DNA of 64,000 nt from a virus (IMGVR_UViG_3300024346_000017:1-64000), one strand, 5' to 3'; shown: positions 26,831 through 29,037, counted from the first letter of the stretch. Numbers and translations: made by a program. Notes: generated by a model from the sequence alone, not told the origin.

Positions 26831-26936
26831 AAAGAGAATTGTACCAGGTCCCACTGACAACTGTCTATAGATTTCAGGGGATTTTTTATGTGACCCGTAA
26901 CACAAGATTTGACCCCGCACCTTTGCGGGCATTTTG

Positions 26937-27010
26937 CGATCTGTAACGGACTTGAACCGTCGACCTCTACCGTGACAGGGTAGCGCTCTAACCAACTGAG
27001 CTAACAGACC
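26937..27010 (-). tRNA. tRNA-Asp(GUC)
   Basis: Minus strand GGTCTGT...CTACC-CTGTCAC-GGTAG...GGTTCAAGTCC...ACAGATC-G. Confidence 0.93.
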
Positions 27011-27021
27011 AAGAAAAAAAT

Positions 27022-27051
27022 TGTGAGCAGTTTTTATTCATGCTCAGGAAT
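27022..27051 (-). ncRNA. Putative compact H-type pseudoknot, copy 1
   Basis: AUUC-CUGAGCAU-GAAU-AAAAA-CUGCUCACA. Confidence 0.55.
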
Positions 27052-27059
27052 TTATTTAT

Positions 27060-28067
27060 TTAGAAAGCAGAAACCAATTTCTTGATTTTGTTTTTCTCAG
27101 CAGTTAGAATTGGGTCAAAGCCTGATGCACCAGCCATTAGTGTTTCAGCATTGCCACGTGATGAACGATAATAATCTAGGCGTTCAGTAAGCGCATTAAA
27201 TGCACCCCATTTTGTGCCCTTGATATTAGCATTAGTTGGTGAGTTATGATAAAGGTCATCAAGAAGAACAACCTTATTTTCCCACTTAGTAAGAGCAACC
27301 TTTGCTGCATCCTTATCTGGCTTAGGATAAATTGTCTGAATCAACTTAGAGAATTCAGCATCGGTGATTGCTTGTGAGTAAAGCGCCTTTGCTTCAACTT
27401 CGAATTCATCAAAGTATCCAAGAGCAAGACCGAGAGTCTCACGAGCAACGGCAATGCGACCTTCAACAGATTGCGTGTGACGAATCTTGAATGATTGCTT
27501 AGCATTACGCATTGCAAGATTCAAAGTGTTTTGGCATACAACACGAACAGGGGTAACGGCTGCTTGAACGGCAACTGAACCATCGTGAGATGTCCATACG
27601 ATTAAATAGAGTTTAGTTTCATCGTTGGCGCCTTGTGGGTCAAGAACCATTGTGCGAGGAATATCAACAGTACCGAATACAACTTTGCCCTTCTTAAGAG
27701 AACCAGCAGATTCCCAACGGCAATCAGCGTTTGCATCATGAATTGCATCCGCAAAAGCGAATAGTTCTTCATTCTGCACAGGCTTGTAGCGCTTACCAAC
27801 AGTGGCAAGAACATCGGTGCCCTTGTTGAATGGGTTGTCACGAATGACAAGAGATGCGGTAGATACATCATTCCAAGATTCTGGAATATGCTCAGTGATA
27901 GGAGACAAGCGAACATTCCAATTGGAAAGTTTTGCTTCGTCTAGCATCGTTTGTGTTGTGACTTCCTCATCTTGTGTAAAGATTCGGTTTGCAAGGTTGT
28001 GCCATGCAGGTGCGCCACGTAGAGCGAAAGCAACTTCGCCGTTTTCGGTTTCGAGATTATGAGCCAT
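27060..28067 (-). CDS. DUF932 (phage/plasmid TIGR03299-like) protein
   Basis: MAHNLE...PAWH...YKPVQNEELF...ESAGSL..G..VF...TSHDGS...TPVRVVCQNTL...IRHT...GTKWGAFNALTE. Confidence 0.88.
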   Translation of the reverse strand: MAHNLETENGEVAFALRGAPAWHNLANRIFTQDEEVTTQTMLDEAKLSNWNVRLSPITEHIPESWNDVSTASLVIRDNPFNKGTDVLATVGKRYKPVQNEELFAFADAIHDANADCRWESAGSLKKGKVVFGTVDIPRTMVLDPQGANDETKLYLIVWTSHDGSVAVQAAVTPVRVVCQNTLNLAMRNAKQSFKIRHTQSVEGRIAVARETLGLALGYFDEFEVEAKALYSQAITDAEFSKLIQTIYPKPDKDAAKVALTKWENKVVLLDDLYHNSPTNANIKGTKWGAFNALTERLDYYRSSRGNAETLMAGASGFDPILTAEKNKIKKLVSAF

Positions 28068-28283
28068 TATTTTTTACCTTTCGTTTGATTAGTTGTAAGT
28101 ATAACATCTGGCACTGACATTGTCTAGGATTAGATACAATATGTCCGAATTGATCCATGTGAGTAATCTCACAAAATTCCTGGCGTTTTCCACAGGCCCT
28201 CTTAAACCTGTGGATAACCCCGCACCTATGCGGGCATCTCAAATAATAAGATGGGGCGGGATCAAGATCCAGCCCCAAACCTA

Positions 28284-28517
28284 TTACTTATTTACTATTA
28301 AAGACTTTACGTAATTAACTGTCTCCATAGGAAAGAATGCTGCAGATGTTTTCTTCTTATTCTTTTGGTCATAAACAAAAGCTTTAACGTTTCCGTCAAA
28401 CTTTTTTAGATTAGAGAATACTAATTCCTTTAGGCTTTCATTATCATAGCCTTCATCTGAGTACATCGTTAAATCATTTGCTTTTACTTCATCGTACATT
28501 TCAATCTTGAAACGCAT
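28284..28517 (-). CDS. Hypothetical protein
   Basis: ORF, AAAGG RBS. Confidence 0.7.
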   Translation of the reverse strand: MRFKIEMYDEVKANDLTMYSDEGYDNESLKELVFSNLKKFDGNVKAFVYDQKNKKKTSAAFFPMETVNYVKSLIVNK

Positions 28518-28550
28518 TGTGTTGCCTTTGTTAGTAGGGACACCCGAAGG

Positions 28551-28580
28551 TGTGAGCAGTTTGGCGACTTACTCAGGTCG
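28551..28580 (-). ncRNA. Putative compact H-type pseudoknot, copy 2
   Basis: CGAC-CUGAGUAA-GUCG-CCAAA-CUGCUCACA. Confidence 0.55.
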
Positions 28581-28614
28581 TTCGCAATTTATCGTTATGC
28601 GAGAACGATTTTAT

Positions 28615-29037
28615 TTAGAGATAACGAGCAACCGCATTGTAAGTGCTTGTGCTAACTACTTCCTCATCTGTCATTTTTAGAATACGAATAGCATTAGAGA
28701 TTTCCTCTTTCTGCTCACGATAAGTATGAACATGAAGTGTCTCAAAGTCCTTCTCAGGCTCTTTAGGCAAATCCTTTTCTAATACTGTCAAGTCAAAGTC
28801 AATGTTTAGGTTGTTTGACCATGAACGATAGTTAGTACGGAAGTTTTCTGCCTTCTTGATGTTAGCAATAGCGTAGTCTTGCACTTCTTTCTGCCAAACC
28901 TTACGCAACTTTTCGTACTTTGCTTCGTTTGCTTCTTGTGAAGCGTAGTCTGACTCTAGTTTTGCTAGTGCAGTTTCTAGTGCCTTGATTACCTTTGGTG
29001 TTGCTATCTTTACTGAGATTGCTTTTTGTCGTGCCAT
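28615..29037 (-). CDS. Hypothetical phage protein
   Basis: TGTCAG-type promoter plus AACGAAAG RBS. Confidence 0.8.
   Translation of the reverse strand: MARQKAISVKIATPKVIKALETALAKLESDYASQEANEAKYEKLRKVWQKEVQDYAIANIKKAENFRTNYRSWSNNLNIDFDLTVLEKDLPKEPEKDFETLHVHTYREQKEEISNAIRILKMTDEEVVSTSTYNAVARYL

Follow-up and report, generated by a model that had tools for sequence, protein, structure and literature searches.

The window analysed is the whole stretch of 64,000 nucleotides (positions 1 to 64,000) of the viral genome IMGVR_UViG_3300024346_000017, which has a size of 113,108 bp. A DUF932 gene is followed by a small RNA pseudoknot (copy A) and by tRNA-Asp; a 140-aa ORF is followed by a second pseudoknot (copy B) and by a 77-aa ORF. 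The minus strand reads AUUC-CUGAGCAU-GAAU-AAAAA-CUGCUCACA at 27051-27022 (copy A) and CGAC-CUGAGUAA-GUCG-CCAAA-CUGCUCACA at 28580-28551 (copy B). The copies are equal in length and in spacing. An earlier, sequence-only reading had described two 30-nt copies of this length and spacing 3' of genes, one before tRNA-Asp and the other before an RBS, with a compensatory exchange of P1 (AUUC/GAAU against CGAC/GUCG) and a C/U change that still pairs with G in P2. All of this is present on the minus strand, and the placement is seen in the ORF and tRNA maps. The coordinates are given in Table 1.

Table 1. Features of the two pseudoknot sites and of their surroundings in the window.
Feature	Position	Strand	Basis or sequence
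Pseudoknot copy A	27022..27051	-	Sequence, pattern match, model R1 49.8 bits, E 1e-14, family covariation
Copy A, P1	27051-27048 with 27039-27036	-	AUUC/GAAU
Copy A, L1	27047	-	C
Copy A, P2	27046-27041 (UGAGCA) with 27029-27024 (UGCUCA)	-	
Copy A, junction	27040	-	U
Copy A, L3	27035-27030	-	AAAAAC
Pseudoknot copy B	28551..28580	-	Sequence, pattern match, model R1 43.7 bits
Copy B, P1	28580-28577 with 28568-28565	-	CGAC/GUCG
Copy B, L1	28576	-	C
Copy B, P2	28575-28570 (UGAGUA, U-G wobble) with 28558-28553 (UGCUCA)	-	
Copy B, L3	28564-28559	-	CCAAAC
tRNA-Asp (GUC)	26936..27010	-	ARAGORN; Rfam tRNA 67.3 bits
DUF932 gene, 335 aa, phrog_1221	27060..28067	-	ORF list; Pfam PF06067 E 3e-56; PHROGs
77-aa ORF downstream of copy B	28284..28517	-	ORF list, sequence; RBS about 25 nt after the pseudoknot, followed by the ATG
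Tetraloop hairpin ACACC-UUCG-GGUGU	28540..28553	-	Fold
Extra hairpin between stop codon and copy B	28578..28608	-	Fold of 28620-28535; orthologous-site comparison
140-aa ORF, no known family	28615..29037	-	ORF list

Copy A starts 8 nt past the DUF932 stop codon (TAA), and 13 nt lie between its final paired base and the 5' end of tRNA-Asp, the RNase P site. Copy B begins 34 nt beyond the TAA of the 140-aa ORF; at the equivalent site of most related phages the distance is only 9-10 nt. The 3' arm of the extra hairpin, which is missing in several related phages (L018, L126, L139), overlaps the first bases of copy B P1. The UUCG hairpin adjoins copy B on the other side and shares its last A; it is kept at orthologous sites, yet is not a feature of the whole family. 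The 140-aa ORF has no match in Pfam or PHROGs; its homologues in other phages stand ahead of 12 of the 153 pseudoknots listed. Sigma-70-like promoters (TAGACA-N17/18-TAnAnT) are located at 28126-28098 and 26867-26838, so copy A lies in a unit composed of DUF932, pseudoknot, tRNA and hairpin, and copy B lies between two co-transcribed small genes.

The nearest cultured relatives of the DUF932 protein are actinophage proteins (Streptomyces phages, about 51% identity), which would agree with an actinobacterial host. Relatives of the gene retain the motif ahead of tRNA-Asp. No cultured phage was retrieved by megablast with the region. In Streptomyces phage Angela, which carries the nearest cultured DUF932 relative, the motif occurs nowhere in the genome, and an ordinary hairpin follows the DUF932 gene. 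A second repeat, with only two copies in the genome (minus strand, window 26914-26930 and 28219-28235), is a hairpin GCCCGCA(A/U)AGGUGCGGG within AUGCCCGC...GGGGU. Both of its copies are the last element of a transcription unit, ahead of a sigma-70-like promoter; it is probably a terminator of the actinobacterial type that lacks a U-tract. A palindrome TGTGA-N6-TCACA is visible upstream of the promoter at 28126.

Copies A and B are the only matches, in the window as well as in the whole genome, to the pattern CCTGAGYA-N7-AAACTGCTCACA when as many as 3 mismatches are tolerated; 0.01 matches are expected by chance. Neither a relaxed descriptor applied to the whole genome nor a covariance-model search of the window reveals a third copy. 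In viral contigs the pattern CCTGAGYA-N7-AAACTGCTCA retrieves at least 120 stretches from very different contigs, some with two or three copies. A slightly different pattern, applied to one bacterial genome per species, retrieves at least 119 stretches from many phyla, with hosts that include Saccharibacteria, Aminicenantes, Lachnospiraceae, Lactobacillaceae, Calothrix, Polynucleobacter and Brucella, as well as beta- and gammaproteobacteria. Cultured bacteria among these hosts are Lactobacillus hominis DSM 23910, Lacticaseibacillus suibinensis, Clostridium sp. LS, Brucella daejeonensis DSM 26944 and Calothrix CCY 0018. The variable bases that flank the loop pair in the manner of P1 in 114 of the 122 bacterial matches listed; nearly all of these matches are therefore true copies. 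Both sites are members of a widespread, uncatalogued family of H-type RNA pseudoknots, 28-30 nt in length, found in hundreds of phages and in many bacteria. Small RNA folds that are conserved in sequence and common to phages and to bacteria of many phyla are rare.

Six tRNAs and nothing else pass the gathering thresholds of Rfam 15 over the whole window. At E ≤ 10 over 26850-28700, nothing credible lies across either copy; an overlap with mir-488 is a chance match (19.8 bits against a threshold of 88). Scoring of 18 related loci at gathering thresholds assigns the motif to no family. Searches of the literature by topic and by motif sequence gave no description of it, and the occurrence of the exact motif string in the 3' end of a maize tombusvirus is due to chance. 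The family was not recognised in the sequence-only reading either. A CRISPR-like array at L311:5050-6124 has 37-nt repeats with a period of 75 nt, and a similar array is possibly also present at L310:~6000. One spacer of the former contains a complete pseudoknot copy, so hosts acquired spacers across this conserved phage element.

The fold is composed of a 4-bp P1 with an invariant C-G closure, a one-base loop C, a 6-bp P2 (UGAGYA/UGCUCA) and a linker NNAAAC. The invariant loop C and the AAAC of the linker point to possible base triples. In an alignment of 110 distinct, pattern-selected copies, 18 of 35 columns are invariant. P1 pair 7-16 is C-G in 110 of 110 and the loop base C is likewise invariant; pairs 6-17 and 5-18 are unpaired in none of the 110 sequences and occur as 3 and 4 pair types, respectively; the outer pair 4-19 is formed in 82%. 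The sequence of P2 is fixed by the search pattern, and all fetched DNA was therefore rescanned with a relaxed descriptor that requires P1 and ignores pairing in P2. At the same threshold, 114 variant copies are obtained from the real DNA and 0 from the reversed sequence. In the resulting alignment, enriched for variants and selected without regard to P2 pairing, the inner pairs 10-30, 11-29, 12-28 and 13-27 change on both sides (GC/AU/GU, AU/GC, GC/AU and CG/UG/UA). The changes are G-C to A-U in 12 sequences, A-U to G-C in 10, G-C to A-U in 4, and C-G via U-G (23) to U-A (6). Pairing is less strict in the pairs at either end of P2. When the P2 partners are shifted by 1-3 columns, the paired fraction falls from 93% to 25-39%. 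The P2 consensus is kept in about 80% of distinct copies after the relaxed search, and compensatory variants are tolerated. Nested folding shows P2 alone, at about -6 kcal/mol. Covariation in P1 and P2 supports an H-type pseudoknot for both helices; the covarying pseudoknot proposed earlier from the two copies is thus borne out by the homologues.

A sub-type with AAAAGGCUCA in place of AAACUGCUCA is present at L028, L039, L050, L095, L099, L114, L006, L208 and L296; P2 lacks its innermost A-U pair and the A-run is longer. Action at the DNA level, as an operator or promoter, is judged unlikely: T stands opposite G in P2 in a third of copies, motif and upstream gene always share a strand, and the 4-bp stem covaries beside a conserved loop.

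The motif belongs to, and is transcribed with, the upstream gene. For 258 of the copies listed, an ORF of 60 or more codons ends nearby on the same strand. P1 begins 5-9 nt past the stop codon in 137 of these and at 0-4 nt in none; above 9 nt, each position is represented by six or fewer copies. The stop codon is TAA in 108 of the 137 cases, and in six copies the UGA inside CCUGAG serves as the stop. No same-strand ORF spans the motif in the 208 phage copies listed. Among the bacterial copies listed, 15 (and 8 probable) lie between convergent genes and 4 between divergent genes, and an overlooked tiny ORF lies upstream in at least two of the latter (L257, L278). Tandem copies with no intervening ORF are present at L096, L257 and L075. 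The upstream genes are unrelated and include DUF932 (13%), Hsp20 and many small unknowns. DUF932 precedes 20 of 153 pseudoknots in the viral loci listed, which were not selected through DUF932, and none in bacteria; a partnership specific to DUF932 is rejected.

About 20 bacterial loci carry a conserved ORF of 20-22 aa, MKRFxVPRxxHCxxGCxxxS (e.g. L205:1220-1301; also L207, L212, L217, L230, L244, L246, L253, L263, L276, L278, L290, L308 and L319). This ORF has a promoter-like sequence and an RBS of its own in the loci read (e.g. L207, L217, L276, L278). It stops at the UGA within the pseudoknot, and a terminator is often next. Twelve loci were examined; in the six checked by Pfam, the ORF lies just downstream of a Peptidase_C26/GATase gene. 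The carriers are Aminicenantes, Anaerolineae, Thermodesulfobacteriota, Eubacteriales and Spirochaetota. The small peptide has no match in Pfam or NCBIfam; it may bind a metal or carry modifications.

Downstream of the motif, the 5' end of a tRNA is located at 3-13 nt in 17 of the 150 phage copies listed, and at 14-60 nt in none. No tRNA ends just upstream of the motif among the phage copies listed. At four loci, stem III of a type III hammerhead ribozyme begins at the base right after the motif. One of these, L237:7541-7595 on a Polynucleobacter contig, is confirmed by Rfam; at L232, L004 and L007 the core motif is matched and the stems were read by eye. The predicted cut lies about 5-9 nt downstream, and a tail of that length would stay on the pseudoknot after self-cleavage. 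About 20% of copies have at least six U among the 10 nt that follow, as against 2-4% of controls. The first 7 nt past the fold are poor in G (1-7% against about 20%), rich in U and less structured than in controls. ACCA is the commonest 4-mer after the fold, but in only 10% of copies, and a tRNA-like NCCA tail is rejected. In four unrelated loci (L021:285-445, L270:5432-5592, L073:1616-1771, L306:5051-5208) the Rfam DUF2800 RNA (RF02960) begins exactly one base downstream of the fold, which may indicate either where this RNA truly has its 5' boundary or where the preceding message ends.

From this anatomy alone, the fold, the family and its context being observed directly, we infer a protective role. 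The pseudoknot would act as a compact cap that withstands the terminating ribosome and protects a 3' end formed shortly downstream; the probability of this reading is put at roughly 0.45. The mRNA channel of the ribosome reaches about 5-7 nt beyond the A-site codon. A spacer of at least 5 nt, mostly 5-9 nt, would keep the motif beyond the unwinding reach of a terminating ribosome, and a spacer this short would leave no naked AU-rich RNA between ORF and cap. The RNA 3' end would arise at the pseudoknot or within about 13 nt of it, by RNase P at a tRNA, by a hammerhead ribozyme, by termination at a U-tract, or by an endonuclease in the G-poor, U-rich flank. The pseudoknot would then block 3'-to-5' exonucleases, and the upstream cistron would outlive the rest of the transcript. 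At copy A, a cut by RNase P at tRNA-Asp would free a DUF932 message that ends in copy A plus 13 nt.

The cap is favoured by the stop-linked spacing, by orientation with the upstream gene and by the convergent contexts, all of which tie the motif to the gene before it. A tRNA, hammerhead or U-tract just downstream is consistent with a 3' end made at that place, and the ORF-free tandem copies suit a redundant roadblock. The position of the hammerheads hints that those of bacteria and phages may serve to cut messages just past this cap. Against this stand several properties. In the tiny-ORF loci a classical terminator follows the motif, so that a further barrier at the 3' end would seem superfluous in these loci, and each termination event requires the ribosome to melt the motif. 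The near-invariant sequence of P2 and linker would also fit recognition by a specific partner. A spacing as sharp as 5-9 nt is what an element touching the terminating ribosome would show. The fold, with P2 at the energy given above, is less stable than an ordinary terminator hairpin. REP elements and terminator hairpins of enterobacteria are 3' stabilisers of upstream cistrons that block 3'-to-5' decay; they share with the motif an intergenic position just past stop codons and the same proposed stabilisation of the upstream cistron. They are simple GC-rich hairpins or palindromes of certain lineages only, whereas the motif is a pseudoknot of 30 nt, conserves bases in loop and linker, and extends across phyla and phages. 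Of the four functions offered by the sequence-only reading, an exonuclease block or processing signal is favoured by the context, and a ligand sensor is unsupported.

Protection in the opposite direction is unlikely. A coremin-like 5'-to-3' roadblock would act on RNase J, on 5'-end-dependent RNase E scanning or on sliding ribosomes, and would protect or insulate the downstream RNA. Coremin (xrRNA-C) and its Watson-Crick variant (xrRNA-WCC) are elements of beny-, cucumo- and other RNA viruses, and their architecture is near that of the motif (PMC10520033, PMC10321173). Coremin has a 4-bp hairpin with a C-G closure and a pyrimidine first in the loop (PMC10520033), a loop consensus YGAD or YGNNAD, and a second hairpin that is required for Xrn1 resistance (PMC10520033, PMC10321173). 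Common to coremin and the motif are a small H-type pseudoknot, a C-G-closed 4-bp hairpin, a pyrimidine as first loop base, an AAAC spacer followed by the loop-interacting bases, strong sequence conservation and a 3' UTR or intergenic location. Tandem copies of the motif resemble tandem xrRNAs, and a hairpin stands directly after copy B, as coremin requires. However, the obligatory second hairpin is not enriched after the motif: a hairpin opens within 7 nt downstream in only 36 of the 250 copies listed and is absent in about 86%. The motif differs further in its 8-nt loop CUGAGYAN, with U and not G as second base, in a P2 that is a full 6-bp Watson-Crick helix, and in its occurrence in DNA phages and bacteria, hosts without Xrn1. 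Its context points to the upstream gene and not to downstream RNA: the spacing is tied to the upstream stop and not to a downstream start, and in bacteria convergent contexts, with nothing downstream to protect, far outnumber divergent ones. To our knowledge, downstream tRNAs and ribozymes need no 5'-to-3' shield, and the beta- and gammaproteobacteria, in which the motif is also present, lack RNase J. A coupling to termination is likewise improbable. The pseudoknot would touch the mRNA entry of a ribosome standing on the stop codon and would alter termination, recycling, read-through or re-initiation. Signals for -1 frameshifting and read-through have a stimulatory pseudoknot 5-9 nt from the decoding site, and the 5-9-nt spacer, with its hard minimum of 5 nt, equals that distance; sequence conservation across phyla would suit a partner as universal as the ribosome. 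The -1 frameshift pseudoknots of luteoviruses (BWYV, PEMV-1, ScYLV) resemble the motif in a compact H-type fold, a C-containing first loop of 1-2 nt, a single junction base, an A-rich last loop and a position 5-9 nt past the codon being decoded. The motif, in contrast, follows a stop codon and not a slippery heptamer, and it is intergenic. The stop-to-motif distance is 10-116 nt in almost half of the copies, copy B among them, and the second copies of tandem pairs have no preceding stop codon. The stop that dominates is TAA, the tightest one; no extended frame follows, and a ribosome reading through at copy A would enter the tRNA.

Recognition by a conserved protein or RNA-processing enzyme, in which the pseudoknot would attract a nuclease, a chaperone or a modifying enzyme instead of acting as a passive block, is considered quite improbable. 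The many invariant columns, the predominance of one P2 sequence even after the relaxed search and the processing sites directly downstream are consistent with such a partner. No protein gene, however, travels with the motif, the upstream genes are unrelated and the hosts belong to many phyla; moreover, purely structural elements such as coremin are equally conserved in sequence. It is very unlikely that the motif is a leaky intrinsic terminator with a pseudoknot in place of the hairpin. A U-tract is present within 10 nt in about a fifth of copies, CAAUUUUUUU stands directly after copy A, and L257 has a second pseudoknot and a U-run where its relatives have a classical terminator. An intrinsic terminator has a stable stem with a U-tract directly behind it; only that fraction of copies has the U-tract, and it is lost at orthologous sites, e.g. 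with CCTTGG and CCACTAGG before the same tRNA. Many copies have a tRNA or RBS 3-13 nt further on, which must be transcribed, and terminator-like sites are not in excess after the phage copies (12 of 221 downstream against 12 upstream). A general role as terminator is rejected; it is possible for the U-tract subset only. A ligand-sensing riboswitch is extremely improbable. The preQ1-I-like topology put forward earlier fits in outline only, as a small H-type pseudoknot of similar size with an A-rich 3' linker or tail. The preQ1-I model (RF00522) gives no match at E ≤ 10, and neither sequence nor a link to queuosine genes is shared. The preQ1-I riboswitch occupies 5' leaders of queuosine or transporter genes, and its fold includes the RBS or a terminator. 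The motif is found after genes and not in leaders, its neighbour genes are unrelated, several copies per genome are possible, no expression platform overlaps it, and copies between convergent genes have nothing downstream to regulate.

A protective cap is the preferred reading. Its widest form is more tentative: a protein-independent 30-nt pseudoknot, convergent with coremin and distributed across many phyla, would stand at a ribosome-safe distance past stop codons, would shield 3' ends made by RNase P, hammerhead or endonuclease, and would possibly constitute the first class of exoribonuclease-resistant RNA of bacteria and DNA phages. If such a class exists, bacterial hammerheads would gain a role as end-makers for capped messages. 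If the pseudoknot is a cap, it would explain how phages tune the lifetimes of single genes inside long early transcripts and why tRNAs and hammerhead ribozymes are sited as they are in phage genomes, and it would supply a portable 30-nt stabiliser for synthetic operons. The strict distance from the stop codon may also provide a natural measure of how far the terminating ribosome reaches.
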